Shown: piece after piece, positions 5,763-62,010 of the stretch
How positions within the stretch are numbered: position 1 is the first letter of the stretch
How the letters are laid out: each line of letters opens with the position of its first letter
Assembly: GCA_051867075.1 (NCBI GenBank)
Contig: JBJDYG010000017.1
Location: forward strand, 3,747-67,746
Direction of reading: 5' to 3'
Length of the DNA stretch: 64,000 nt
DNA from: Faecousia sp.
GTDB lineage: Bacteria; Bacillota; Clostridia; Oscillospirales; Oscillospiraceae
Position numbers and translations under genes: made by a program
Notes under the pieces: generated by a model
The model's input: only the letters and a program-made list of their open reading frames with translations
Told to the model about the DNA's origin: nothing
Databases searched by the model: none

Positions 5763-6614
5763 ATGGAGATGAAACAGGAACACAGACCCTGCAAAGAAAA
5801 GACAGGCGACACACTCTATAAGATCGGCATGTTCGCGGCCATGAATCATGTTACCGTCAAGACCCTGCGCTTTTACGAGGAACAGGGCCTGCTGATGCCG
5901 GCGCTGATCCATCCGGAGACCGGATACCGCTACTACACCCTCTCCCAGATGGCGGTGCTCCACCAGATCACCGCCCTGAAGCTGGCGGGATTCACCCTGG
6001 AGGAGATTGCCCATATCCATTCCGGGGCCGATGAAGAAGCGGTACTTTTGAAGAAAAAGTCAGAATTGGTTGCAAAAATCTCTGATCTCACGAGACAGAT
6101 CGCCGTGGTGGACGGATACCTGTCCAAAAAGAAAACCGGACTTTCCGCACCCGTCCTGATCAAAACCATCCCCGAAACCACCGTGGCCTATATGCGGATC
6201 CGGCTGGAATCCTACGACTGCCTGTTTGACCGGATGCCGGAAATGGGCGCGCTGATGGAGAAAGCGGGCTGTATCTGTGCCCTTCCGGAATACTGCTTTA
6301 CAAACTATCTGGAGCCGGGATACAAAGACGGGGACATTCCGGTTGAGATCTGTGAGTCCGTTGTGGAGGCGAAGAAAGAAGTCGGCGAGCTGCGCTTCAA
6401 AACCCTTCCCGAAATCCAGGCGGCCTGTGTTTTCCACAAGGGCTCCTATCGTACCTTTTCGGAATCCTATGAAACCGTGCTGCGTTATATCGAGGAAAAC
6501 GGGTACGAGATTGCCGGGCAGATCCGGGAGAGCTATATTGATGGAGTCTGGAATAAGGAGGATGAGAGCCAGTGGCTGTCAGAAATCCAGGTGCCGGTGA
6601 GAAGAAAGGCGTAA
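5763..6614 (+). CDS. MerR family regulator with GyrI-like effector domain
   Basis: YKIGMFAAMNHVTVKTLRFYEEQGLL...GYRYY; C-terminal GyrI-like region ending EIQVPV. Confidence 0.9.
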   Translation: MEMKQEHRPCKEKTGDTLYKIGMFAAMNHVTVKTLRFYEEQGLLMPALIHPETGYRYYTLSQMAVLHQITALKLAGFTLEEIAHIHSGADEEAVLLKKKSELVAKISDLTRQIAVVDGYLSKKKTGLSAPVLIKTIPETTVAYMRIRLESYDCLFDRMPEMGALMEKAGCICALPEYCFTNYLEPGYKDGDIPVEICESVVEAKKEVGELRFKTLPEIQAACVFHKGSYRTFSESYETVLRYIEENGYEIAGQIRESYIDGVWNKEDESQWLSEIQVPVRRKA

Positions 6615-6868
6615 TAATCCGTGTACCTTAAACGGTTGCAACCGTTTTAACGAGAAATCCGAATAACCCATCTTAACAACTGCCGCATGATGGAAAAGCC
6701 GTTATGCGGCAGACACTATCCACGCAATAGAAACTTTATGAAATCTTTGTAAAACCCATTGGCTACCAAACGATAGTTTGCCATACTATGCGTGCAATAA
6801 ACGCATATGTCATTTCGAAAATTGGGAGAAAGACGCAGCTATCGCATTACTTGAAGGAGATGTTTATT

Positions 6869-7858
6869 ATGAAAAGACTAATCACCCTGCTTCTAGCTAT
6901 GATCCTGTGCCTAAGCTTGGAAGCGTGCGACGTAAAGGCTGAACTCGTACCAAACTCTCAGGAAATCCATATCCAGGTAACCCCACAGGAAAAAACTGAG
7001 GAAGCCCAAACGGAAAGCAGCAATACCATTGCTCCAGAAGAAGCTACCGAAACTATGGAAGAAACTACCGAAATGATGAAAGAAACCACCGAAACAATTA
7101 ACAAAAACACAGAAACTACAGAAATAGCTACTGGAACGACGAAAAAGGCTACAGAAGCGACGAAAAAAGCTACAGAAACGGCGAAAAAAGCCACAGAAAC
7201 GGCGAAAAAAGCTACAGAAACGACGGAAAAAGCCACAGAAACGACGAAAAAAGCTACAGAAACGACGGAAAAAGCCACAGATACAATGGAAGAACCCATT
7301 CAGTTGAATTATGATCTCATCGGGCCGTGGCATTTGAATCCAAGTAAGAATGACCTTGCAGCCTTTGCAGATTCCCTCGGTCTGTTCCCCGGTTATGGAG
7401 AGTGGGGAGCCAGTATGGAAATTAGCGGCAACGGTGAAATGAGCTGGTACATCGGCGCAGAGAGCTGGCATGGCACATACTCTGTAGAGAAGAATACCCT
7501 CCATGCTCATCTGACCTCTGATTTGGAGCAGACCTCAAAGGTCTGGGACTTCCGTATCACCTCAGAAAATGGAACATATGGGCTAGAAATGGCTTATAAG
7601 AATATGACAATCTACTGGGTGTATGGCGATCAGGCGGAAGCCGCAACTGGAAATACCGTCCCTTCCAACTGGGAAAAAGCCACAGAGGACGAACCGTGGA
7701 AAGTGGCGCTAGCGGAAGACTTGTTCGCAAAATACGGTGTGATTCCGAAATACTATGAGGATCTGGGTGATGGGATTTATCAGGTCTATGTGGAAATAGG
7801 CGGTGAAATCGTCCCCTTCGTTGCAGTTAACTCTGCAACAGGCGATTATCACGGATAA
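6869..7858 (+). CDS. Secreted protein or lipoprotein with Thr/Glu/Lys repeat stalk
   Basis: Signal peptide MKRLITLLLAMILCLSLEAC, low-complexity TE/K stalk, C-terminal domains shared with 15762-16520. Confidence 0.8.
   Translation: MKRLITLLLAMILCLSLEACDVKAELVPNSQEIHIQVTPQEKTEEAQTESSNTIAPEEATETMEETTEMMKETTETINKNTETTEIATGTTKKATEATKKATETAKKATETAKKATETTEKATETTKKATETTEKATDTMEEPIQLNYDLIGPWHLNPSKNDLAAFADSLGLFPGYGEWGASMEISGNGEMSWYIGAESWHGTYSVEKNTLHAHLTSDLEQTSKVWDFRITSENGTYGLEMAYKNMTIYWVYGDQAEAATGNTVPSNWEKATEDEPWKVALAEDLFAKYGVIPKYYEDLGDGIYQVYVEIGGEIVPFVAVNSATGDYHG
7141..7287 (+). repeat. 7 x 21-bp coding tandem repeat (KKATETA/T)
   Basis: Units such as gaaaaaagctacagaaacgac; units 4-7 form a 42-bp higher-order repeat. 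Confidence 0.95.
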
Positions 7859-7957: not shown

Positions 7958-8836
7958 ATGGCAAAGAAACAAGCTATACCGAGAGTAATCTTAATCGTAG
8001 GAGCAAATCGCGGAATCGGTTATTATCTAGTAAAACGTCTGCTCGAACTTGGCGATTTTGTTTCGGTTTTAGATATTAATACGGATAATCTGAAGGAATT
8101 GAGAGAAGCGTATCCCGATAACTTAGTTGCAATTACAGCAGACGCGGCGAAAGACGAAGATATTAAAAACGGAGTAACCGAAACAATCAAGCAGTTCGGG
8201 GAAATTGATATCGCTGTACATAACGCCTGCCTTTGTACTTTTGAAAGCGAGCCAGAGAGCAATTACGAGCTTTACAGCAAAGTAATGGATATCAACTTCT
8301 TTGGGGCGTTACGCCTATCAAAAGCGGTTTTGCCGGAAATGCGCAAACAAGGTTTTGGCAGCATCATTTTTACCAGTTCGGGTGTAGGCGTTACTGGATT
8401 TGGCAACATTTCTCCTTACGCCTCGTCAAAGGGTGCAATAGAATCCCTGGCGAAATGCCTTGAAATCGAAAATCAGAGATATGGCATTTCCTTTCATTTA
8501 TTCCATCCCCCGCTTACGAATACGGCTTCATCATCGGAACTTCCCATTCCAAAAGAAATGATGGCAAGTCCCCAAAAAGTTGGAAAAGGGCTTGCCGAGC
8601 ATATCGGCTCCCCCAAATTCGTGATCTGTCATTCCTTTAGCCAAGCTATTCAAATGAACCTCTGCTATCGTCACCCTCTGTTTATGGGTAAGATGATGTG
8701 GAAAATGACAACACGAACAGTTCCAGAATCCGGAGCTGGCGAAGCTGCAAACGAAACAGAATTATTCCGATGTGCTGCAGTATTTCACCGGACTGATAAA
8801 GTGCCCGATTCGCAAAGGTGTTCTGACAGTGGATGA
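7958..8836 (+). CDS. SDR family NAD(P)-dependent oxidoreductase
   Basis: VGANRGIG, HNA, SSG and YASSK catalytic motifs; the last ~35 residues look foreign. Confidence 0.9.
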   Translation: MAKKQAIPRVILIVGANRGIGYYLVKRLLELGDFVSVLDINTDNLKELREAYPDNLVAITADAAKDEDIKNGVTETIKQFGEIDIAVHNACLCTFESEPESNYELYSKVMDINFFGALRLSKAVLPEMRKQGFGSIIFTSSGVGVTGFGNISPYASSKGAIESLAKCLEIENQRYGISFHLFHPPLTNTASSSELPIPKEMMASPQKVGKGLAEHIGSPKFVICHSFSQAIQMNLCYRHPLFMGKMMWKMTTRTVPESGAGEAANETELFRCAAVFHRTDKVPDSQRCSDSG

Positions 8837-50696: not shown

Positions 50697-50869
50697 GCTA
50701 AAGCCCTCCATCTGTCTGTTCTGCGGTCATTATACCATAGCTTTTCCAATTTGCAACAAAATGCCTTTTCCTTTTTTTGCTCAGGATATCAGGGGAAAGG
50801 GATTGCAAAATATCGAATAATCCGATATAATGTTCTTGTTATGAAAAAAACAAATTGGAGGATTCTGAA

Positions 50870-51850
50870 ATGTCAAGTAACGTACGTCCCGAATCCATGG
50901 AGCGTATCACAACCCCTGAGCTTGCCAACGCCTTTATCACCCAGCAGGTCGACGAGATCCGCGCACAGGTGGGCGGCAAGAAGGTACTTTTGGCACTGTC
51001 CGGAGGTGTGGACTCCAGCGTTGTGGCAGCCTTGCTGATCAAGGCCATTGGCAAGCAGCTGGTTTGTGTCCACGTCAACCACGGTCTGCTTCGCAAAGGT
51101 GAGCCGGAGCAGGTGGTCAAGGTGTTCCGCGACGAGATGGACGCAAATCTCATCTACGTTGACGCCGTTGACCGCTTCCTGAACAAGCTGGCGGGGGTCT
51201 CCGATCCCGAAACCAAGCGGAAGATCATCGGCAAGGAGTTCATCGAAGTATTCAACGATGAAGCGAAGAAGCTGGAGGGTATTGATTTTCTGGCGCAGGG
51301 CACCATCTATCCCGACATTCTGGAATCCCATGGCGTCAAAGCGCACCACAATGTGGGCGGTCTGCCCGAGGGCATGAAGTTTGAACTGGTGGAGCCTGTC
51401 AAGCTGCTCTTTAAGGACGAGGTTCGTGTTGTGGGCGAAGCCCTTGGCCTGCCCCATAACATGGTCTACCGTCAGCCCTTCCCCGGCCCCGGTCTGGGCG
51501 TACGGTGTCTCGGCGCCATTACCCGTGACCGTTTGGATGCCCTGCGGGAAGCAGATGCCATCCTGCGTGAGGAATTTGACAAAAGCGGTCTGGCCGGGAA
51601 GGTCTGGCAGTACTTCATCGCGGTACCGGACATGAAGAGCGTGGGTGTAAAGGACGGCAAACGCTACGAAGGCTGGCCCGCCATCATCCGCGCCGTCAAC
51701 ACCACCGACGCCATGACCGCCACCATTGAAGAGATCCCCTATCCCCTGCTCCACCACATCACCGACCGTATCACCCACGAAGTAGAAGGCATCAACCGCG
51801 TCCTGCTGGATCTGACGCCCAAGCCTATCGGAACGATTGAGTGGGAGTAA
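50870..51850 (+). CDS. guaA: GMP synthase, ATP-pyrophosphatase + dimerisation domains only (no GATase domain)
   Basis: ALSGGVDSS PP-loop at residue ~40, QGTIYPD, HHNVGG, RQPFPGPG, KP..TIEWE. Confidence 0.92.
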   Translation: MSSNVRPESMERITTPELANAFITQQVDEIRAQVGGKKVLLALSGGVDSSVVAALLIKAIGKQLVCVHVNHGLLRKGEPEQVVKVFRDEMDANLIYVDAVDRFLNKLAGVSDPETKRKIIGKEFIEVFNDEAKKLEGIDFLAQGTIYPDILESHGVKAHHNVGGLPEGMKFELVEPVKLLFKDEVRVVGEALGLPHNMVYRQPFPGPGLGVRCLGAITRDRLDALREADAILREEFDKSGLAGKVWQYFIAVPDMKSVGVKDGKRYEGWPAIIRAVNTTDAMTATIEEIPYPLLHHITDRITHEVEGINRVLLDLTPKPIGTIEWE

Positions 51851-51863
51851 TCACCAAAATCCC

Positions 51864-51890
51864 AAAAGCCGTTGCGTTGCAACGGCTTTT
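51864..51890 (+). terminator. guaA terminator
   Basis: aaaagccgttgc gtt gcaacggctttt followed by a T-rich run. Confidence 0.8.
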
Positions 51891-51998
51891 TCCTTTCCTG
51901 TCCGCCAAATGATAACGGTTTGATAACATTCGTCCTAAACAGGTTTGTTTATTTTATTTCAGGGTGACGGGTGGCTTGCAGGTTGTTCTAAAAAGAGC

Positions 51999-52040
51999 AA
52001 TGGCTCTACTGACTTTTGTTACGAAGTCGGTAGAGCCATT
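51999..52040 (-). terminator. Terminator of the XRE repressor
   Basis: aatggctctactgactt ttgttacg aagtcggtagagccatt. Confidence 0.75.
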
Positions 52041-52056
52041 TTTGTTTTCAAAAAAG

Positions 52057-52587
52057 TCAATCCACGTTCTCTTTCAGTGCATTCACAATCAGATCATTCA
52101 GGCCCTGAGAAGGAATCGTCTTTACCCAGCCGGGCTTGTTGTCAAACTCAGGATATTTGTATCGCCACTGGTCGTATTCTTCTTTTGTGATTTCCCCGGC
52201 TTCCAGCTTAGCTGCCTCCTTCTGCCAGCTGGTGAACATGTCAAGCAAATTCAGGTAATCGCTCCCCTTGCTCTTGTCCAGCCGCAGGCAAAGTTCCCCA
52301 TCAATCTCCCCGATTCTCAGACCGTAACGATCTTCCAACGCAAAGAATGTGTGCATTAGACCAATGTAGCTGTCAATGTCCGGGAGATCAATCGCCTTGG
52401 GTGACACATCCAGAACACCTGCCAGCTTTTCCATAATCTCCGCCTTGGGCGTGCGGGTTTCAGATTCGTACTGCGCAAGACGAATATCCGCAGAGCGTTC
52501 CGGGAAGCCAACCATCATGCCCAGGTATTTCTGTGTCATTCCACGAAGGTTGCGGAAGAAATGAATCCGTTCTCCAGTTGCCATATT
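52057..52587 (-). CDS. XRE family repressor of an integrative element
   Basis: MATGERIHFFRNLRGMTQKYLG...RLAQYE...RTPK, a typical element repressor upstream of xis/int. Confidence 0.85.
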   Translation of the reverse strand, partial: NMATGERIHFFRNLRGMTQKYLGMMVGFPERSADIRLAQYESETRTPKAEIMEKLAGVLDVSPKAIDLPDIDSYIGLMHTFFALEDRYGLRIGEIDGELCLRLDKSKGSDYLNLLDMFTSWQKEAAKLEAGEITKEEYDQWRYKYPEFDNKPGWVKTIPSQGLNDLIVNALKENVD

Positions 52588-52682
52588 CAACATCTCCAAT
52601 CGTTTTTCTCTGTATGCTTTGAGTATAGCATATCAGTTTAACCACGTCAAGAAAAACTTAAACATAATTGCTTTATATATGC

Positions 52683-52711
52683 TTGACATAAACGAAGATG
52701 TTTAGTATAAT
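52683..52711 (+). promoter_or_regulatory. Consensus SigA promoter with operator dyad driving the xis-like gene
   Basis: TTGACA - 17 bp - TATAAT; the spacer holds TAAAC-N6-GTTTA and a related dyad lies at ~52719-52737. Confidence 0.85.
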
Positions 52712-52831
52712 ACAGATACTAAGCTATATAGTTTAGTATGACAATTGAATAAACTAAAATATGATAACATGGGCTTGAACTACCAAGCAGCAGGTTATCA
52801 GACAGAAACGAGGAAAGGAGGTAAATTGCCT

Positions 52832-53020
52832 ATGGCAGCACAGATGTTCATGCGAGCAGATGAGGTAGCTGAAGTGCTGGGAGTATCCAAGCCCTACGCT
52901 TACAAACTCATCCGAGAAATGAATGAAGAACTTAAGAAGACCGGCTGTATCACCATCTCCGGACGCATCGACCGGAAGTTCTTCAATGAAAAGTGGTCAA
53001 GCAACTGTGCTTTCATATAG
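52832..53020 (+). CDS. Excisionase-like HTH DNA-binding protein, probably 3'-truncated
   Basis: FMRADEVAEVLGVSKPYAYKLIR..NEELK..G.ITISGRI; no integrase follows. Confidence 0.75.
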   Translation: MAAQMFMRADEVAEVLGVSKPYAYKLIREMNEELKKTGCITISGRIDRKFFNEKWSSNCAFI

Positions 53021-53151
53021 CAATGCCTCCTATATCTATGGTTTGTAACAACGCCAGAACAATTTGTAAAAAGTGTCCGCTTCATTTTGGAAAACCGGAG
53101 TACCGGAATCGCAAACGCATTCCATCCTCGTCATACATGCAAGGCGGAAGC

Positions 53152-53448
53152 TCACTCGATGGTCAGAATATCTGAGAAGCCCGTTATGTCAAAGACCTCC
53201 AAAACTGCTTCGCTGACATGGCGGATGACCATCCTGCCCTGCTTGTTCATGATCTTCTGGGCTGTCAGCAGCACACGCAGCCCGGCAGAGGAGATGTACT
53301 CCAGCTCAGTAAAATCAAAGGAAAGCTCCGTCACCTGGGAGATGTCCGACTTGATTTCTCTCTCCAGCTCGGGAGACGTAGTGGTATCCAGCCGTCCGCT
53401 CAACGCAATTGTCAGCGCGGAGCCCGCAGTTTTCTTCGTGATTTTCAT
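53152..53448 (-). CDS. STAS domain anti-sigma factor antagonist
   Basis: LSGRLDTTTS, LEYISSAGLRVLL with the phospho-acceptor Ser, ITGFSDIL. Confidence 0.93.
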   Translation of the reverse strand: MKITKKTAGSALTIALSGRLDTTTSPELEREIKSDISQVTELSFDFTELEYISSAGLRVLLTAQKIMNKQGRMVIRHVSEAVLEVFDITGFSDILTIE

Positions 53449-53548
53449 AATCATACCTCCATTACAGCAATTTTGATTCTGCTATATGCTTTTTCAGTAT
53501 AACAGAGTCGGTATCCTTTGTTAAGATTAGCAAAATACGAACGAGTTT

Positions 53549-53709
53549 GGTAACATCTGATGAAATCAGCTGCGGCTGAGCGGCGGGCCTTTCGCCCCAT
53601 CCGCGCAGTATCAAATTGGGAAATACACAAAGGATTCCTGCAATTTTGGTACTTTCGGCTGAGTCAAAATCCCTCGCCACCAGCTCTTGCTGATTTATCG
53701 GAGGTTTCC
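53549..53709. mobile_element. Possible degenerate 161-bp MITE
   Basis: ggtaacatctgatgaaatcag and ctgatttatcggaggtttcc are imperfect inverted repeats (~17/21) around a GC hairpin. Confidence 0.35.
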
Positions 53710-53800
53710 TAAGCGTGAAAGCTTGAATGCAGCGCATGGTAATATCGTCAAACTGGGGCGCATTGCCCACAAATTGGTTCCCATCCGCCGTCGCACCCGT

Positions 53801-55828
53801 TTACCAGCTCTTTTCTATGGTCAGGATATTAAAGCCATCCAAATATTCATAATGAATCCCATCCATGATTTTTTTGACAACGAAAATGCCCAGGCCGCCA
53901 ATATCCCGCTCCTCCGCTGGCAGGGTGATATCCGGATCCGCCTTTTCTGTGGGATCATAGGGTTTTCCGTTGTCTACGAAGCGGAGTACGGCCCGGCGCC
54001 CTGCCACCTCGCACCCTACCGTGGCGGTGGTAGCCCCGCTGTACCGTACGATATTGGAAAAGATCTCATCCACCGCGATGTTCACTTGGGTGATGATTTT
54101 TTCCGGTGCGTCGTGCCTGACAAGCTCCTGCTCAAAAAAGCCACTGACCTCCGGGATACTTTCCGGCTTTGGCGCGATGTTGCGTTTACGCATCATCTCC
54201 CCGCCTTTCCGCTGAATGGACAGCATGGTGATATCGTCAAACTGGGGTGCGTCTCCCACAAACCGATCAATATCCTCTTTGACGGTTTGGAGCAGCTGGG
54301 CAGGTGCCCCGGATGGGCAGCGGTTCAGCGCCTGAAGCATGCGCTCCGTTCCGTACAAGACACCCTCCGTGTCCGTGGCCTCCGCCACACCGTCGGTGTA
54401 GACGAACAGGGTATCCCCAGGTTCCAGCGTCAGCTCGTATTCCCGGTATCGGGACCCCTCCATCCCGGCCAGCACAAACCCGTGCCTGTCCCGCACCAAT
54501 TCAAAGGTGCCGTCCGCCCGCCGCAGGGCCGGATACTCATGGCCGGCATTTGCGGCGGTTAGCCTGCCGGTGGAGATCTCATAGACACCCAGCCAGACGG
54601 TTACAAACATCTCCGCCTCATTGTTCTCACAGAGCTGGTCGTTGACCTTCTCCAGCACCGCCTTGGGGGACAGTCCGGTCTGGGCGGCGTTTTTCAGCAA
54701 AGTCTTGGCGATGACCATGAACAGCGCCGCCGGTACCCCTTTGCCTGACACATCCGCAATGACAAGTGCCAGATGGTTGTCGTCCACAAGAAAGAAATCA
54801 TAGAAGTCGCCGCCCACTTCCTTTGCAGGCGTCATACCGGCATAGACATCAAACTCCGACCGATCCGGGAACGGGGGGAAAATGCGGGGCAGCATATCCG
54901 CCTGGATCTGTGTAGCCACATTCAACTCCGCGCCGATGCGCTCCTTCTCCGCCGTGACCTTCCTGAAGTCCCGGAGGTAGGAGATCACATCTTCCTCCAT
55001 CTTTCGGAAGGAATGCGCCAACAGTTCCACCTCGTCCCCGGTCCGGATGTTCGGTACATTCACCGTGGCTTTGCCCTCCGCCAATTCCTTCTCGTTGCTT
55101 TGAATGAAAGCACCGGTGGCCTGGGTTAACTGGTCGATGGGGCGGATCACCTGGCGGCGCATGATGGTGAGAAACAGGGCGATAAAGCCAACAGTCAGGG
55201 ATGCCAGCAGGGCAGCCAGTGTGACAAGAAAGGTACGCCGGGTGTTCATCACCTCGTTCATGCTAATGTCCGTCATGACATAACCGGCCATGGTGCCGTC
55301 CTCATGGAGCACCGGGGTCATGGCAGTCATCAGCCAGCCATAGCTCTCATCCCACTGGACGATGGGCGCAACCGGCCGTCCAGCCAACAGATTGTCCAGA
55401 TTATCCGCGAAGCCTCCCACCAGATCCACATAGGTGCCCAGGGCGCAATAACCCCCGTCAGCATAAGTCCCTCCCTCGTCCATCTCCATATCGGAGTCGA
55501 AGAGGAAGGTCACACCCACTCCGTGGGGGCGCACCACATAGAGATATTCCACATCGTTGCTTTCCACCAGATCCCGGATAAAGTCCTGGGTGGCGTAGTA
55601 CGCCTCATCCATCTGGCCGGTCTCAAAGTAGTTGTCCAGCTTTTCCGCCTCCAACTGACCAGCCAATGTGCGTACCAGATTGGTGCCCAGCCGCTGGTAG
55701 TAGTCGGTCATAGTGGAGCTGAAGATATGGTAGCTTGCCGCGATCGCCACAAAACTCAGCGTGATACTGAGCAGCACAATCAGCGCGGTCAGCTTTTTAC
55801 CCAAGGAAAACCTGACTTTGCGTTTCAT
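53801..55828 (-). CDS. Membrane sensor: TM-ectodomain-TM-HAMP-PP2C (SpoIIE/RsbU-type) fused to an RsbW-like HATPase
   Basis: VGGDFYD, ADVSGKG, YTDGVAE, QFDDITM; then DEIFSN, DNGKPYDP, GGLG. Confidence 0.92.
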   Translation of the reverse strand: MKRKVRFSLGKKLTALIVLLSITLSFVAIAASYHIFSSTMTDYYQRLGTNLVRTLAGQLEAEKLDNYFETGQMDEAYYATQDFIRDLVESNDVEYLYVVRPHGVGVTFLFDSDMEMDEGGTYADGGYCALGTYVDLVGGFADNLDNLLAGRPVAPIVQWDESYGWLMTAMTPVLHEDGTMAGYVMTDISMNEVMNTRRTFLVTLAALLASLTVGFIALFLTIMRRQVIRPIDQLTQATGAFIQSNEKELAEGKATVNVPNIRTGDEVELLAHSFRKMEEDVISYLRDFRKVTAEKERIGAELNVATQIQADMLPRIFPPFPDRSEFDVYAGMTPAKEVGGDFYDFFLVDDNHLALVIADVSGKGVPAALFMVIAKTLLKNAAQTGLSPKAVLEKVNDQLCENNEAEMFVTVWLGVYEISTGRLTAANAGHEYPALRRADGTFELVRDRHGFVLAGMEGSRYREYELTLEPGDTLFVYTDGVAEATDTEGVLYGTERMLQALNRCPSGAPAQLLQTVKEDIDRFVGDAPQFDDITMLSIQRKGGEMMRKRNIAPKPESIPEVSGFFEQELVRHDAPEKIITQVNIAVDEIFSNIVRYSGATTATVGCEVAGRRAVLRFVDNGKPYDPTEKADPDITLPAEERDIGGLGIFVVKKIMDGIHYEYLDGFNILTIEKSW

Positions 55829-55857
55829 ATAAATCCCTTTCTCTCGTCCATAACCTC

Positions 55858-57609
55858 TTATATCCGCACCACCAGCGTGTTAAAACCAGCGTACCGGCGG
55901 TAAAAAAATTCTTTTGCTTTCTTCTTGATCATCTTCACGCCGATGGCATCCAGGCCGGTACCGTCCTCCAGGCTGATGGCATCGGTGTCCATCTCAAAGG
56001 GATTGAAGGCTTTGGCATTGTCCCGGAGATGGAGAGTCACGGTGCCGTCCTCATGGGGCACGATGGTAAACTGGATGTAGCCGTCGCTTGTGGAGAAGGC
56101 GTGGCTGAGGATCACCCCGCACACCTCTTCCACGGCAATGGCGGCAAAGTAGTTCTGGGCGGCGCTGGCGCCGATTCTCTCCAGATAGGCGGACACCTCC
56201 GCTTCGGTTGTCCCCAGGTTGGCGGCCCGGCTGTCCAGGAAGGCGCTGAATACCCGACTGTCGTCCTCCTGCAAATAGGTCCAGGATCCATTTTTATGAT
56301 TGTATAGGCACACGACGCCCAAGGTAGCAAGCTCCATACAGGGATAGGTCCACCAGAACAAATCCACGGTGCCGCGGCTGAAGAGTAGACTGAATCCCAG
56401 AAAAAATGCAAAGGAGCGCAGTGTGAACAGAAGATAGCTGATAAACTCCCGTCCCAGGGCCTGATAATAGTAAGTCAGTACCATGTTGATCCCTGACGGC
56501 AGGAGACACAGGGCATAGATACGGATGGCTGTGCTTCCCATGTCCAATTCCTCCGCTGTACGCAGCCCAAAGAGGAAACTGACCCACCGTGGAACGCCCA
56601 GCAGCAGGGTAGCCAGGAGAACATCCACCACCAGAGACACCCGGAATGCCTGCCAAAGCGTGCAGCGGATGTTGGCACTGTTGTGTTCGCTATGAAAGGT
56701 ACTGACCATGGGATGGAGCGCCATGCTGATGGCATCATACACCGATGCCGCCACCAATGACACATTGAACACGATGCCAAATACCGCCACGGCCAGTTCC
56801 CCATTGATGGACATGAGCAGGCGGTTGCATACCAGAATGGTAATCAACTGATAGACATACTGCACCGATGTGGCAAAGCCTGTCCGAAAGGACAGCAGCA
56901 CTGCGGAAAACCGGTACTGCGGCCATCGAAAACGGAGGCAGCCCCTTTTTTTCACAAAGTGGATCAGGCTGATCAGGATCATTGCCGCGGCTCCCAAGCC
57001 GGTGGAATATACCGAGCCGGCAATCCCCAGGTTCAGCAGGACCACGAAGATATAATTGAAGACAATATCCAGAATATTGCTGGTAACAAAAGCCACAGCC
57101 GCCAGCTTGGGGTCGTTATCGCAGTTGACAAAGTAGTAGAATGGGCCTTGGCAGAACATAATTGGCACCAGCAGCAGCTGGGCCCGTACCAAAGCCTCGC
57201 AGTTGGCCCATACCTCGGTTCCCTGTTCCCCCGCGCCCAGGAAAGATAGTACCTGGGGCAGAAAAAGCAGCCCCAGGATGCACAGCGTCACATTGAGCAG
57301 CAGGTCGGTACACAGGACATTGGCAAAAATCTGATTACCCTCCTCCTCTGCGCCCTCGCCCAGGACATTGGCATAACGGATGGAGCCGCCGATAGACAGG
57401 GAGTAACTGATGGTATTAAACAGCATATAAACGGGCTGACCGATGCTGATTGCCGTCATCCCCACCGGCCCGATGGCATTGCCCACGAAGACGCAGTCCG
57501 CCAGCCCACCGGCCGCAATCCCCAGGCACGAGAGCAAACTGGGGATAAAAAAGCGGTAAAAAGATTTTCGGACAAACACAGTTTCCCGGGCGGATGGCTG
57601 AAATTCCAT
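55858..57609 (-). CDS. MATE family transporter fused to a C-terminal RsbW-like HATPase domain
   Basis: About 12 TM MATE (DCVFVGNAIG, NCDNDPK); tail AVEEVC...LHLRDNAKAFNP...IG...KKAKEF.YRR..GFNTL. Confidence 0.88.
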   Translation of the reverse strand: MEFQPSARETVFVRKSFYRFFIPSLLSCLGIAAGGLADCVFVGNAIGPVGMTAISIGQPVYMLFNTISYSLSIGGSIRYANVLGEGAEEEGNQIFANVLCTDLLLNVTLCILGLLFLPQVLSFLGAGEQGTEVWANCEALVRAQLLLVPIMFCQGPFYYFVNCDNDPKLAAVAFVTSNILDIVFNYIFVVLLNLGIAGSVYSTGLGAAAMILISLIHFVKKRGCLRFRWPQYRFSAVLLSFRTGFATSVQYVYQLITILVCNRLLMSINGELAVAVFGIVFNVSLVAASVYDAISMALHPMVSTFHSEHNSANIRCTLWQAFRVSLVVDVLLATLLLGVPRWVSFLFGLRTAEELDMGSTAIRIYALCLLPSGINMVLTYYYQALGREFISYLLFTLRSFAFFLGFSLLFSRGTVDLFWWTYPCMELATLGVVCLYNHKNGSWTYLQEDDSRVFSAFLDSRAANLGTTEAEVSAYLERIGASAAQNYFAAIAVEEVCGVILSHAFSTSDGYIQFTIVPHEDGTVTLHLRDNAKAFNPFEMDTDAISLEDGTGLDAIGVKMIKKKAKEFFYRRYAGFNTLVVRI

Positions 57610-57762
57610 AGCTTTCTCCTCTGATTATGATTTGCACTTTGCAAAATCGGTATTTGACTCTGGATTTGCAACAACCACCGTAGGACAGAGACTTTGCCCC
57701 CCCGTCCTACGGTGCGCAGCATACCCACCACGTCAATATCCAGTTGTAAGCGGGCAGCAGCG

Positions 57763-58095
57763 TTACCGGGCGGCCAGGGAAGCAACAAATATAGGCCATC
57801 CGTCTCCAATGGTCAAAATGTCAATGAATCCGGTGACCTCGAACACTTCCATAATGGTATTATTCACATGATGGATGACCATTTTGCCCTGCATATTCAT
57901 GGCTTTCTAGGCAGCCAGGATCACCCGCAGGCCGGCGGAGGACAGGTACTCCAGTGCTGCGAAGTCCAGATTCAGCTCTGTGACGCCCTTCAGGGATTTG
58001 AGCTCCACTTCCAACTGGGGAGCCGTTGCAGTGTCCAACCGGCCCTCCAGGGCGATGTTCCAGAAAGTCCCTTCCAATGTTTTCTTGATGTTCAT
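57763..58095 (-). pseudogene. Second STAS gene with an internal amber stop
   Basis: LEYLSSAGLRVILAA*KAMNMQGKMVIHHVN..IMEVFEVTGFIDILTI; TAG at 57907-57909 where the paralog has Gln. Confidence 0.8.
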
Positions 58096-58277
58096 ACCTA
58101 AACCTCACAAATATGATAATCAAGGCCAGCGTACCATCTTGAGCCAAGCCCGCAACGATCGCGTCAATCGCTTCCGTCAGGGGATTGTTTTTGTCCTGCA
58201 AGGTCTCAAACCGGATATCGCCGGTATTTACTTTGTTTTCCGCGCGGCCCGCTAAGAATGCCGCTGACTCTAAAGGT

Positions 58278-58904
58278 TTATATCCCTAAAAACCGTCTAT
58301 ATTCTGTCGTCGTTCCCGACCTTACTTTCGGGTTATATTTCATAATAAAGAGTTCAAGGGTTTCCTTCAGCGTTTCTATCTGAGATTTCAAATAGAATTC
58401 ATCCTCAAACAGTGCGTAGTGAACGCAGGCTCTGATTAGAATGAATATCAGCGGCGTCAGCTTTTCGTAGGGAATACCAAGCTTGCTCTCTAAACTTTTT
58501 GCGTATTGCGTATAACGCTTATCTACGCCCGCGAAGAATTTCTGACCGTATTCTCTGTATTTCGGGTGGGTATAGACCTGATACATCAGGCGGTATTTCT
58601 TTCCGTGCTGTTTTGCCGTCCAGTAGGGTATCTCGTCAATAAACCGCCATAGGTTCTCAACACCTGTGGGGGCTTTCGCCATAAAATCATCTTCTACCTT
58701 GCTCATACAGTATTCAGTGGATTGGATGATAAGGTCATCCAAATCCTTGAAATATGTATAAATCAAAGATGTGTTATATCCGCAATGTTTCGCCAAGGAA
58801 CGAATACCGGTGCCGTGCAAACCCAACTCTGCAAAGCCGTTAAAGCACTTTTCCATAAGCTCAACTTTTTTAGCATTCCATTGTTCGTCTGTATAATTCG
58901 CCAT
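58278..58904 (-). CDS. TetR/AcrR family regulator
   Basis: FAELGLHGTGIRSLAKHCGYNTSLIYTYFKD HTH. Confidence 0.88.
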   Translation of the reverse strand: MANYTDEQWNAKKVELMEKCFNGFAELGLHGTGIRSLAKHCGYNTSLIYTYFKDLDDLIIQSTEYCMSKVEDDFMAKAPTGVENLWRFIDEIPYWTAKQHGKKYRLMYQVYTHPKYREYGQKFFAGVDKRYTQYAKSLESKLGIPYEKLTPLIFILIRACVHYALFEDEFYLKSQIETLKETLELFIMKYNPKVRSGTTTEYRRFLGI

Positions 58905-58991
58905 CTGTCAGTCTCTCTAATTCAAATCGTTCGTAATGAATAAAGTATAACATACATCGGATAAATAATCAATGTGTTACGCAATTATAAC

Positions 58992-59515
58992 ACGACGATT
59001 GCATGAATGCTTCCCTTAGTCTTATTTTCAAAGGGCATATTTTTTTAAGAATTGAGAACCACTTCAAGGAACCTTGTTGGGCGCAGACTGATAACGAAAC
59101 GTTTTCTCTTCATAGACAGTTTCTTCTCATACAGTTCTGTAGCTTTGAGAATGCTAAGACACCATTTTCTGATGATATTCAGGTTCTGTGCAGCGTTTTT
59201 GTCTATCGTTGCATTTGCATCTTCACGGAAGGTGACGTCCAAATGCCAGTGCATACTTTCAATACTCCAATGTCCACGGATCGCACGGCTGGCCAGTTCT
59301 ATATCTTCCGGAAGACTGCTTATAAAGTAACGATATTCAACACGCTCTATTTCTCCCTTTTTAAGTGTTTTCTTCTCCATTATGATACTTTTTAGCCCTT
59401 TCCACGCCCCTTTCTGCGTTATCCATTTAATATCCATTGTTTGGTAATACTCTCTTATTTCCAGCTGCCCATGTGCTTTTTCGGATGTCTTCTTGTAGGT
59501 TCCCTTTTCTGTACT
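58992..59515 (-). pseudogene. ISAs1-family transposase 3' remnant
   Basis: EKAHGQLEIREY...YRYFISSL...IRGHWSIESMHWHLDVTFRED; 5' part missing; end sequence CATGCAATCGTCGTG. Confidence 0.85.
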
Positions 59516-59681
59516 TTAGATGTCAGTATTCCTCAATATCTGATGCTGTCTGTCATATTGATCCCCATGATGTATCTTGAATATCAGAGGAGGAGAGCAT
59601 AATCATTACAGTACGGTATGAATAGCTGCCAAATTGATTCAATGTATGATAAGCGCGAAATCAAAAAGGAGGTATTACACC

Positions 59682-59756
59682 ATGTATCGAAAAGTCATTG
59701 TCTTTCTTCTGACCATCCTTGTTGTGATCGCCATTGCAGGATGCTGGATACCGTAA
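59682..59756 (+). pseudogene. Lipoprotein signal-peptide stub
   Basis: AAGGAGG RBS; MYRKVIVFLLTILVVIAIAGCWIP*, a lipobox followed by a stop. Confidence 0.4.
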
Positions 59757-60213
59757 AAACAGTATGATCTACAGACACCGGCATCCCAACCGATCGAGTA
59801 AACAGAGCATATGCCGGATGCACCGCCTACAGAGATAGTGCTAGAAAGAAATAGAGCCAACGGTGACGAGCTGCTTTCGATCTCTAAATAAAACGGAGCG
59901 TTTTCAGAATAGACAGAAAATGGCTATACTCTAGCGCTGACCTATGTAGAAGTCTGTGCGCTCTGTAAGACGGAACACCCCGGACATTCAGGTGTCCGGG
60001 GCGTTTTGCGTCATTGCTTTCCAAACAAGGGGCTGCACCCTTGCACCGCTAAGCGGCTATCCTTGCATATCTGGCCAGCAGAAACGGTTTTGCAAATTGG
60101 GAATTGCATTTAACTTATGAACGCTATTGATTTTTTTGGAAAAAACGAGTATACTGTAATTACTGTTACAGAATATTCGTTACAGAATAAATATTACAGA
60201 TAGGAGGAGCATT

Positions 60214-60819
60214 ATGCCACCGAAAGCAAAATTTACAAAGGAACAAATCACAAAAGCTGCACTTGGCGTTGTTTCTGAAAAAGGGGCGCAGGCACTGACT
60301 GCTAAGGAGCTGGGTGCCGCTCTTGGCACATCCACCACCCCGATTTTTACAGTGTTCAATTCTATGCAGGAAGTTCAGGATGCAGTGATGCTCGCCGCTA
60401 TGGAGCGATTTGAAGAATACGCACACAAAGCCGCAGATTCAGGGCCTGTTTTTAAGCAGGTGGGTATGCAGATGATTCTGTTTGCGAAAGCAGAGCCAAA
60501 GCTGTACCAGCTCATTTTTATGTCTTCCATCAGCAAAGCACAGACCTTTGAGGATATTTACGCTCGCCTGGGTTCGGTTGCCGATGAATGCCTGGATGTA
60601 CTTCAAAAAGACAATAATTTGAGCAAAGACAATGCAAAAACGCTGTTCGAGCATGTTTGGATTCACACATTCGGCATCGGCGCTCTTTGCGCCACCGGTA
60701 TGTGCGATTTCTCCCATGAACAGATCGCCGAGATGCTGACACAGGATTTTACCGCCATGATGATGCTGATGAAATCCGGTAAATCCAGTCAGCCTACGAC
60801 GCAAAAGACGAAGGGATAA
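60214..60819 (+). CDS. TetR/AcrR family regulator (WHG-type)
   Basis: MPPKAKFTKEQI...LTAKELGAALGTSTTPIF; WIHTFG; upstream dyad ctgtaa-N6-ttacag at 60154-60171. Confidence 0.88.
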   Translation: MPPKAKFTKEQITKAALGVVSEKGAQALTAKELGAALGTSTTPIFTVFNSMQEVQDAVMLAAMERFEEYAHKAADSGPVFKQVGMQMILFAKAEPKLYQLIFMSSISKAQTFEDIYARLGSVADECLDVLQKDNNLSKDNAKTLFEHVWIHTFGIGALCATGMCDFSHEQIAEMLTQDFTAMMMLMKSGKSSQPTTQKTKG

Positions 60820-60822
60820 CTT

Positions 60823-62010
60823 ATGAAACTACTGAAAAACATACTAACTATACTACTATGTGCGGCAGTGTTACTGCTTGCCGTCTTTCTGATTGGCAGA
60901 TACGGCTGGAAACTGGTCGGCTTCCGTGCCTGCGAAAGCGCCGGAATCCAACAGGTGAATGTAGAAGAAAAACAAGTTCAGATTCATGGTTTTTACCCCG
61001 GCTCTTTCCCACAGGGGTTCTTGGGATACCATGCAGAACAGGTGGATAGCACCCTATATGTGGGATTTAAGTTCAGTGGCGTGTTCGGCTTTTTTGAAAC
61101 CGGGGATTTTGATATTACAATTCCTACCAACGGAACCGTCTCGCAGGTCGTGGTCAAAAGCGGTGAACAGGAATATCCCATCTGGCCCGAAGAAGAGGAT
61201 CCGCTTCTTCGGGATACGCAGGCAGCGGAAAACGGAATCTATGTCTATTTGGAGCGAGACGATGTGTATTCCGTGGACTGGCATTTTGAAAACCAAAGCG
61301 GCGGTATGGCGAATGCGGACGGTACTGCACTGGAAGACAGAAAAAATATCTACTTGGATAATGATATTTTCTTCGCGGCGGCGAATCAGGAACGCCCGGT
61401 TCCTGTTATGCTGACATTCTCTGATAAAGACGGAACGCCCATTGCCCGGACGAATACCAGCTTTGATTCACAGTCGCCAACGCTCATTGTTACGCTGACA
61501 GCGGATACAAAAATCCTTTTGAATGGAGTCGAAGCGGAAGTCCCTGCCGTTCCGACTGTATATGAGCAGATTCTCGACCAGTATCACGCCGCGTTGGAAG
61601 AGAATTGGGATGGACAGCAGCTGACAGATGCGGGATTGAACCTCATGCTAAGAGATGTTGCACTGGAAACAGTGGGCTACGCCATAGATGATCTGGATGA
61701 TAACGGTATTCCGGAGCTTGCGATTGGAACGATTTCCGGGGATGACTTTTATGGGAGACTTATTTTCGCCCTCTACACAGTGGACAGTGACGGCGAACCC
61801 GTTTCGGTTTTCAGCAGTATCGAACGGGATCGTTACTATTACGCAGGGGGTAATCGGTTTGCCAATCTGGGTTCCTCATCTGCCGCTGACAGCTTTGTGA
61901 CTACCTTGAAGCTGGAGGGCGAAGGACTGGTGGATATGACCTTTACCACCGACCCGGCGGAGTATGTACAGATGGAACTGGTATCGATTATAGAATCAGA
62001 TGGGGAATAA
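60823..62010 (+). CDS. Membrane-anchored secreted hypothetical protein
   Basis: N-terminal TM helix, acidic ectodomain, DLDDNGIPEL EF-hand-like motif. Confidence 0.7.
   Translation: MKLLKNILTILLCAAVLLLAVFLIGRYGWKLVGFRACESAGIQQVNVEEKQVQIHGFYPGSFPQGFLGYHAEQVDSTLYVGFKFSGVFGFFETGDFDITIPTNGTVSQVVVKSGEQEYPIWPEEEDPLLRDTQAAENGIYVYLERDDVYSVDWHFENQSGGMANADGTALEDRKNIYLDNDIFFAAANQERPVPVMLTFSDKDGTPIARTNTSFDSQSPTLIVTLTADTKILLNGVEAEVPAVPTVYEQILDQYHAALEENWDGQQLTDAGLNLMLRDVALETVGYAIDDLDDNGIPELAIGTISGDDFYGRLIFALYTVDSDGEPVSVFSSIERDRYYYAGGNRFANLGSSSAADSFVTTLKLEGEGLVDMTFTTDPAEYVQMELVSIIESDGE

Follow-up and report, generated by a model that had tools for sequence, protein, structure and literature searches.

A sigma-less partner-switching module of Faecousia sp. 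with a predicted RsbW-like pseudokinase fused to a MATE transporter

This work concerns a locus on the minus strand (positions 53152-58095) of a 64,000-nucleotide stretch of contig JBJDYG010000017.1 (positions 3,747 to 67,746; assembly GCA_051867075.1) of Faecousia sp. (Oscillospiraceae); this whole stretch is further referred to as the window. We propose that the locus is a sigma-independent partner-switching module, in which a transporter-fused pseudokinase domain takes the place of the switch partner, a reading that we hold with roughly even confidence. Four features follow each other in the reading direction, according to the list of open reading frames (ORFs) and Pfam, i.e., a STAS gene interrupted by an amber codon, a gene for a MATE protein with an additional C-terminal tail, a gene for a sensor-PP2C-kinase protein and an intact STAS gene. 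A preliminary description, made from the sequence alone, had reported the same gene set, and it proved accurate to the residue in comparison with the ORF list, Pfam and NCBIfam. Mapping of domains with hidden Markov models, which it had proposed as a check, gave matches to STAS_2, MatE, HATPase_c_2, HAMP, SpoIIE and STAS. The features are as follows (AF2, AlphaFold2; aa, amino acids):

57766..58095, minus strand: syntenic STAS gene, best read as a pseudogene (translation, sequence, Pfam STAS_2, DNA alignment with the related loci L014, L017 and L027)
55858-57609, minus strand: MATE-tail fusion gene, 583 aa (Pfam MatE and HATPase_c_2)
56275..57609, minus strand: DinF-type MATE domain of the fusion protein, residues 1-445 (Pfam, AF2, Foldseek, family profile)
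55861..56274, minus strand: RsbW/SpoIIAB-like tail of the fusion protein, residues 446-583, directly continuous with the MATE domain (Pfam HATPase_c_2, hhalign, AF2, Foldseek)
53801-55828, minus strand: sensor-HAMP-PP2C-kinase gene, 675 aa (Pfam)
54998..55828, minus strand: sensor part, with two predicted transmembrane (TM) helices and an extracytoplasmic domain, followed by HAMP
54209..54784, minus strand: PP2C (SpoIIE-type PPM) serine phosphatase domain, residues 349-540 (Pfam SpoIIE)
53816..54175, minus strand: RsbW-like serine kinase domain, residues 552-671 (Pfam HATPase_c_2)
53696..53797, minus strand: relic of a PP2C 3' end (...GNAPQFDDITM...), non-coding debris between the phosphatase-kinase and STAS genes (tblastn)
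53152..53454, minus strand: intact STAS gene, 100 aa (Pfam STAS, TIGR00377)

The proposal turns on the tail of the MATE protein. The score of its match to HATPase_c_2 (residues 460-582, E=3.6e-6) lies exactly at the Pfam cut-off, and both single-sequence and profile searches against PDB sequences gave marginal SpoIIAB matches only (E ~0.3), because of which the homology was demonstrated through profile-profile alignment and fold. In an hhalign comparison, the profile of 28 tails matched that of 19 neighbouring kinases with a probability of 98% (E=1e-13), and the tail is therefore a true homologue of these kinases. The alignment pairs V499 of the tail with the N-box Asn of the kinases, its DNA motif with their DNG, and its DAIG with their GGLG. 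The N-box Asn is not retained in any of the 28 tails, being replaced by Ala (19 tails) or Val (9 tails), the G1 glycine is changed to Ala in 26 of them, and the G2 lid glycines have become (Ala/Asp)(Ser/Ala). The loss of the N-box Asn and the degenerate G boxes, noted earlier for the window protein, are thus common to all 28 homologues.

The AF2 model of the tail alone (predicted local distance difference test, pLDDT, 89) found as its top Foldseek matches SpoIIAB (1tid), RsbW (6m37), UsfX (8ih8), SiaB (6kko) and the RsbW domain of Rv1364c, with TM-scores of ~0.7 and E-values down to 3e-6; the crystal structures of these kinases include their STAS-type partners. The ratio of nonsynonymous to synonymous substitution rates (dN/dS) of the tail, determined for the window gene against five of six close relatives, amounts to 0.11-0.27, and in a distant rumen clade the tail is 39-48% identical to that of the window, as against 28-35% for the membrane domain. 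Since the ATP-binding motifs have been lost in the 28 homologues, yet the domain has stayed under purifying selection, the sequence and model data identify the tail as a predicted conserved pseudokinase of the RsbW fold and not a kinase.

The transporter part matches MatE in two stretches of the 583-aa protein (E=4e-28). Its full-length AF2 model (pLDDT 86, predicted TM-score 0.80) comprises 12 helices and superposes on inward-facing PfMATE (6fhz, TM-score 0.86), with further Foldseek matches to DinF-BH and VcmN, and the best PDB sequence match of the family profile is DinF-BH (E=6e-50). The protein shares with DinF-BH and PfMATE not only the 12-helix MATE fold but also an aspartate in TM1. 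This residue, D38, is invariant in 30 family members and aligns with D40 of DinF-BH; entry 5c6n, a D40N mutant, differs exactly in this column. D40 of DinF-BH is the TM1 aspartate used for proton/substrate coupling. Its inward-facing MATE fold and the conserved TM1 aspartate that corresponds to D40 of DinF-BH make it probable that the transporter works. The dN/dS of the MATE domain amounts to 0.07-0.13 (window gene against five of six close relatives); the comparison with L014, at a synonymous divergence (dS) of 0.73, gave 0.116 for this domain and 0.122 for the tail. With dS of 0.7-2.0 to the relatives compared, these values indicate that both parts are under purifying selection. Ordinary MATE proteins end after TM12, whereas this family adds a conserved cytoplasmic domain of ~138 aa.

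The 675-aa protein encoded by the next gene begins with a putative sensor, in which two hydrophobic stretches read from the sequence (residues ~13-35 and 199-222) enclose an extracytoplasmic domain of ~165 aa; the corresponding region of the orthologues gave weak dCache_1 and CHASE4 matches. A HAMP domain (residues 248-277, weak Pfam match) is followed by the PP2C domain, which covers positions 1-191 of the 192 positions of the SpoIIE profile (E=9.4e-55) and also matches the NCBIfam models of the SiaA and RssB phosphatases. The C-terminal kinase domain (HATPase_c_2, E=3.4e-17) belongs to a set of 19 orthologues, phosphatase-linked or free-standing, with invariant E43, N47, D74, G76 and GGLG and with the N-box EEIFxN, and the profile of this set matches RsbW of B. 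subtilis (6m36, E=8e-9). The view that one protein carries both a PP2C phosphatase and a kinase with intact N, G1 and G2 boxes has therefore held, and both activities appear competent, judged by their motifs. A chimeric origin of the 675-aa protein was considered, as its PP2C domain shares 81-83% identity with a second PP2C in L021, L022 and L047, and was rejected; the protein is an orthologue of the MATE-adjacent phosphatase-kinase, because it shows 77% identity over 682 aa along its full length.

The intact STAS gene is separated from the phosphatase-kinase gene by a gap of 346 nt. Its product matches Pfam STAS (E=2.9e-16) and the anti-sigma factor antagonist model TIGR00377 of NCBIfam (E=6e-21), apart from a weak NCBIfam match to MlaB, and contains a phosphorylatable serine in the motif YISSAGLR. 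The corresponding Y-L-S-S-A-G-L-R is kept in 45 STAS proteins of related loci, in which Ser55 and Ser56 are invariant or near-invariant, so the SSAG motif pointed out earlier in the window protein is a conserved one. Its identity to STAS proteins of class B relatives (see below) amounts to 59-68%, and in locus L028 the STAS gene occupies the same place, downstream of the phosphatase-kinase gene.

The locus thus encodes, as predicted from sequence, the STAS protein with its serine, the motif-complete kinase and the PP2C phosphatase of a partner switch; a cognate sigma factor was not found in it. The most economical reading of this set would be docking of STAS on the tail to gate transport. According to it, the kinase domain would phosphorylate STAS at the SSAG serine, and an extracytoplasmic signal transmitted via HAMP would shift the balance to the phosphatase. 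Unphosphorylated STAS would then dock on the MATE tail, as RsbV does on RsbW, and the complex would persist, because the tail could not phosphorylate and release STAS, and would alter the activity of the transporter in one direction or the other. The transporter is taken for the output because it is the only non-signalling member of the conserved gene set in class B.

The fusion protein belongs to a large family. A word-indexed search gave 155 close homologues, each of ~580 aa, from, among other sources, Candidatus Ventricola (85% identity) and Oscillibacter valericigenes; where named, they pass as an ordinary efflux pump ("MATE family efflux transporter", "MatE efflux family protein", "Na+-driven multidrug efflux pump") or as a "hypothetical protein". 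A HMMER search with the tail profile (E<=1e-10) indicated that the family consists of at least 327 clusters at 50% identity, and nearly all full-length matches have a length of 570-590 aa and carry the tail C-terminally. Scanning a single genome per species yielded 58 loci of Oscillospiraceae, Lachnospiraceae, Christensenellales and rumen Clostridia, with identities down to 32%. In all of them with the 3' end of the gene present, the match extends through the tail to residue 579-583 of the query. A PP2C gene lies downstream of the transporter gene in every locus with downstream sequence present, and a STAS gene is found on the same strand in 38 of the 58 loci.

A survey of gene neighbourhoods of MATE-HATPase fusions had also been proposed in the preliminary description. 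The 58 loci, mapped by means of seed proteins, by clustering of their ORFs and by Pfam, fall into three classes, in which sigma factors are rare. Class A (~23 loci; O. valericigenes, Flavonifractor, Intestinimonas, Christensenellales) shows the order MORN protein, Pvc16_N, 244-aa protein, DUF4280, AAA ATPase, STAS, MATE-tail, PP2C (HAMP), second PP2C and RsbW-like kinase, followed in most loci by LPG_synthase_C-like and/or GNAT genes and by eCIS_core-domain proteins. The module is placed between the gene of an Afp15-like AAA ATPase and the genes of eCIS_core-domain effectors of an extracellular contractile injection system (eCIS). In this class, STAS and MATE genes abut or lie ~20-100 nt apart (in O. 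valericigenes STAS ends at 8000 and MATE starts at 8001). A sheath gene was found 20-30 kb upstream, on the same strand, in all three class A genomes tested, and the 20 kb upstream in O. valericigenes contain genes of the sheath, two gp19 tubes, CIS_tube+LysM, the GPD hub, a VgrG-like spike, gp25 and two Baseplate_J proteins. The module is here enclosed in a complete Afp/PVC-type eCIS cluster. Class B comprises the window and ~10 loci, with a STAS gene nearby, the MATE-tail gene and then PP2C and kinase as one fused gene; no eCIS was found within 10 kb. Class C (~20 rumen loci) has its genes in the order LPG_synthase_C-like, MATE-tail, GNAT and PP2C-kinase, with STAS just upstream in four loci only.

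Several membrane sensors are encoded in the eCIS clusters of L043/L088 (O. valericigenes AP012044, ~2,445,000-2,487,000) and of ~22 other loci, namely an 860-aa HAMP protein, whose C-terminus looks nucleotide cyclase-like by eye, and two Cache-HAMP PP2C phosphatases. In another eCIS-linked locus (L071:4822-5100), the MATE-tail gene is cut to a ~40-aa fragment between STAS and the first PP2C, with a sigma-70-family gene downstream on the opposite strand; this natural MATE deletion could inform about the function of the module.

In the ~23 class A loci, the module lies within a full Afp/PVC-type eCIS cluster (sheath, tube, spike, gp25, baseplate J, Pvc16_N), whereas the window and its genome are devoid of eCIS genes. 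In tblastn searches of this genome (2.57 Mb, 97% complete), the Pvc16_N, DUF4280, 244-aa and MORN proteins of the relatives found nothing, and for the AAA ATPase there were no more than weak matches to generic AAA domains; the location within an eCIS cluster, observed in ~23 relatives, is therefore not shared by the module of the window. This distribution bears on a different reading of the fusion, which we judge unlikely, namely that the MATE protein is a sensor ("transceptor"), whose tail pairs with the kinase domain or serves as a sink that keeps STAS at the membrane. The flux of substrate through the transporter would then set the phosphorylation state of STAS, and free STAS would act on another target, which in the eCIS-bearing relatives could be the assembly or firing of the injection machine, e.g., via the Afp15-like AAA ATPase. 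The dimeric state of RsbW and SpoIIAB and the homology of tail and kinase would agree with such pairing. The reading as a whole would also fit the position of the STAS gene directly between the eCIS AAA ATPase and MATE genes of a complete cluster in ~23 loci and the further membrane sensors (two Cache-HAMP PP2Cs and the HAMP protein) of these clusters. However, the window and rumen clades keep the module without eCIS within 10 kb, the genome of the window has no eCIS genes at all, and no alternative STAS target is common to the three locus classes.

Sigma factors were searched for around all homologous loci. The genome of the window has 16 sigma-70-family genes, all on other contigs, and no sigma factor was found on the 69-kb contig of the window. 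With these 16 genes as tblastn seeds, a sigma-like ORF was detected within 10 kb in 3 of the 58 loci, a count that refers to sigma factors recognisable by tblastn and that very divergent ones could escape. Two of the three are related rumen loci, with an ECF-like (extracytoplasmic function) sigma 1-3 kb upstream, and in the third, the MATE-deleted locus, the gene is on the opposite strand. The locus had been described as sigma-less, with the remark that a cognate sigma factor found consistently in homologous loci would argue against the proposal; its absence turned out to be the rule among the relatives.

The tail could in principle be a membrane-tethered anti-sigma factor for a distally encoded sigma factor, released by unphosphorylated STAS, with the MATE domain as a mere anchor, which we consider very unlikely. 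The best fold matches of the tail are indeed anti-sigma factors, including those in sigma complexes (1l0o, 8jzt), and candidates for the sigma factor could be sought among the 16 genes of the genome or seen in the ECF-like sigma of the two rumen loci. Against this stand the 55 of 58 loci with no sigma factor within 10 kb and the fact that canonical anti-sigma kinases keep ATP binding, whereas the tail has lost it throughout the family examined. Moreover, the MATE domain keeps its mechanistic Asp and is under the same constraint as the tail, which is unexpected for an anchor.

The window copy of the module carries several marks of rearrangement. The upstream STAS gene encodes 62 aa (57910-58095; Pfam STAS_2, E=1.7e-7), is interrupted by TAG at 57907-57909 and continues in frame to TAA at 57766-57768. 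A DNA alignment with the relatives L014, L017 and L027 shows CAG or CAA in place of the amber codon and a stop where the window copy reads GGA GAC, by which 13 codons are added. Judged by this alignment, the amber is a real lesion relative to the kin, a Gln codon changed to TAG. Reassignment of TAG was regarded as unlikely, as TAG does serve as the stop of 2 of the 47 long ORFs of the window and the relatives have Gln codons at this site. Because of the two lesions (the TAG and the lost stop), the upstream gene, which is the syntenic STAS, is best regarded as a pseudogene; the intact gene downstream is a paralogue of it. In tblastn, the second PP2C of L021, L022 and L047 and the PP2C of L028 match no more than the relic of ~30 aa between the phosphatase-kinase and STAS genes, all that is left of the second PP2C here; the ORF of this relic (53696..53797) has no Pfam match.

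In a maximum-likelihood tree of 50 proteins, in which nine class B loci beside the window were placeable, class B forms one clade (support 100/99) nested within class A, and the rumen class is a distant group. The version of the window is derived, since class B is nested within class A. According to the topology and gene orders, the ancestral module was part of the eCIS cluster, and class B left this cluster once; in that step the first of its two phosphatases disappeared and the second became joined to the kinase.

The GC content of the module (0.54-0.59) exceeds that of its flanks (0.41-0.45 at 51850-53150 and 58100-60900), and the low-GC flank starts right after a gene with a GMP-synthase C-terminal domain (guaA-like, 50855-51850). 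The flanks encode an XRE-type helix-turn-helix (HTH) protein (52057-52599), an excisionase-like HTH_17 protein (52745-53020) and two TetR proteins (58278-58904 and 60214-60819), as well as an ORF (59045-59437) that was read by eye as a transposase fragment and has no Pfam match. The low-GC-bracketed module next to the guaA-like gene suggests a genomic island.

These traits are those expected if the locus were a decaying, functionless leftover of the eCIS-associated module on a mobile island, an explanation that we regard as quite unlikely. It would account for the syntenic STAS pseudogene, the PP2C relic, the lack of eCIS genes in the genome and of adjacent LPG_synthase_C or GNAT genes, the low-GC flanks, the excisionase-like HTH protein and the presumed transposase fragment. 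On the other hand, both large genes are intact, with dN/dS ~0.1 in relation to relatives at dS of 0.7-2.0, the downstream STAS is intact and retains the phospho-serine, and nine other genomes have the same eCIS-free architecture in one well-supported clade. In view of this ten-member eCIS-free clade, the intact genes and the purifying selection, the reading of the window copy as a decayed remnant of an eCIS cluster is retained only as an alternative of little weight.

Several observations nevertheless weigh against STAS docking on the tail as the function of the module. The tail could bind something other than STAS, e.g., the kinase domain, which is its homologue, or a sigma factor encoded elsewhere, and the limited sensitivity of the sigma test has to be kept in mind here. 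The STAS pseudogene and the PP2C relic show that the locus was rearranged, and the system may be partly out of use in this genome. Moreover, no STAS gene was found within the flanks examined in ~16 of the 20 rumen-clade loci, because of which the STAS partner is not always encoded in cis.

A second fusion is found on contig C21 of this genome, in a sodium:dicarboxylate symporter of 536 aa (Pfam SDF, E=5e-56), the N-terminal 130 aa of which match the kinase profile (hhalign 91%, E=1e-6); this RsbW-like domain is also degenerate, being without the N-box Asn and missing the whole G2 region. Its neighbourhood (C21:6364-9984) includes a STAS gene (7464-7757), LPG_synthase_C and PP2C relics and an intact RsbW-like kinase gene (6364-6777). 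C21 codes in addition for two ABC exporters, of which one or both resemble the exporters of Peptidase_C39 type in L002, and a TetR gene at the end of this contig is 94% identical to a TetR gene of the window. A dead RsbW domain has therefore been joined to a transporter at least twice, and the two independent fusions favour a general logic of STAS docking on a transporter.

In comparison with the RsbU/V/W and SpoIIE/AA/AB systems of Bacillus, the module has the same types of components, i.e., a STAS protein with a phosphorylatable serine, a GHKL-type serine kinase and a PPM phosphatase with an N-terminal sensor, and its tail model superposes on SpoIIAB and RsbW. It differs from them by the lack of a sigma factor, by the presence of kinase and phosphatase on one membrane protein and by a second, dead RsbW-like domain fused to the transporter. 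Partner switches are textbook regulators of sigma factors; few with other outputs are known, and their physical target is mostly unclear. In SypE and Rv1364c, kinase and phosphatase are joined in one polypeptide. SypE/SypA of Vibrio fischeri, SiaABCD of Pseudomonas, HenR/All4160 of Anabaena and Rv1364c of Mycobacterium resemble the module in being STAS-type phospho-switches with a non-sigma output. According to a preprint, HenR/All4160 is a sigma-independent partner switch that controls a polysaccharide enzyme; together with the SiaB-SiaC and Rv1364c structures among the fold matches of the tail, it provides a precedent for outputs other than a sigma factor. Unlike the module, these systems have an enzyme or an unknown output, none is known to possess a transporter-fused pseudokinase as a docking site, and none is known to be located in a contractile injection cluster. 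As sigma-independent partner switches were already known, the sigma-less character is not the novelty; the novelty is the transporter-fused pseudokinase.

A STAS fold contacts the cytoplasmic face of a transporter and thereby modulates it also in the SulP/SLC26 proteins, which carry it at the C-terminus, and in the MlaFEDB lipid transporter, which contains MlaB. In contrast to both, STAS is here free-standing and would be phospho-regulated, and the transporter carries a kinase-like receptor instead. With the docking domain and the presumed output, a MATE exporter, joined in one protein, the target of the switch would be written in the gene architecture itself, and what a sigma-less partner switch acts on becomes directly testable with three or four proteins.

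To our knowledge, the regulation and release of eCIS are still open questions. The module inside complete eCIS clusters of gut Oscillospiraceae is a concrete candidate for a control circuit. We put forward, tentatively and as less than probable, that the set of STAS, MATE-pseudokinase and sensor-phosphatase is a signal-controlled gate of the contractile injection system of gut Clostridia, and that the window clade has a phospho-gated exporter freed for other use. In the eCIS-bearing relatives, the STAS switch would be thrown by an extracytoplasmic cue perceived by the Cache-HAMP phosphatases, and the transporter-fused pseudokinase would license either the export of a small molecule made by the LPG_synthase_C-like and GNAT proteins or the assembly or release of the particle. 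The constant companions of the module, i.e., the aminoacyl-transferase-fold (LPG_synthase_C-like) and GNAT genes, hint at an exported small molecule. Such a gate, if it exists, would be the first case in which post-translational control of an eCIS is described and in which a partner switch gates a transporter. Searches of the paper library used returned no paper on MATE-RsbW fusions or on a transporter-fused RsbW-like pseudokinase and none that connects eCIS clusters with partner switches or MATE genes; in the main text of the 2021 eCIS survey, STAS, SpoIIE and a MATE transporter are not mentioned.

An LPG_synthase_C-like gene (E=1e-48) beside a GNAT gene (Acetyltransf_9) is present elsewhere in the genome of the window (C45:51440-53147), away from partner-switch genes; in relatives, this gene pair is found together with the MATE module, and it is not adjacent to that of the window. 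In four class B loci (L016, L022, L042 and L047), the STAS gene is directly followed by a gene for a 393-aa protein with a C-terminal glyoxalase/bleomycin-resistance domain, in the N-terminal half of which an RsbW-like domain was not detectable (hhalign 0.2%). Genes of LytTR response regulators occur near the module in L066, L067, L042, L046 and L047, a set that partly overlaps the loci with ABC exporters. Paired ABC exporter genes lie a few kb from the module in L041, L059, L066 and L002/L003 and on C21, with no eCIS genes in the flanks examined; the Peptidase_C39 domain was confirmed in the exporters of L002/L003, and those of the other loci are linked to them by homology.

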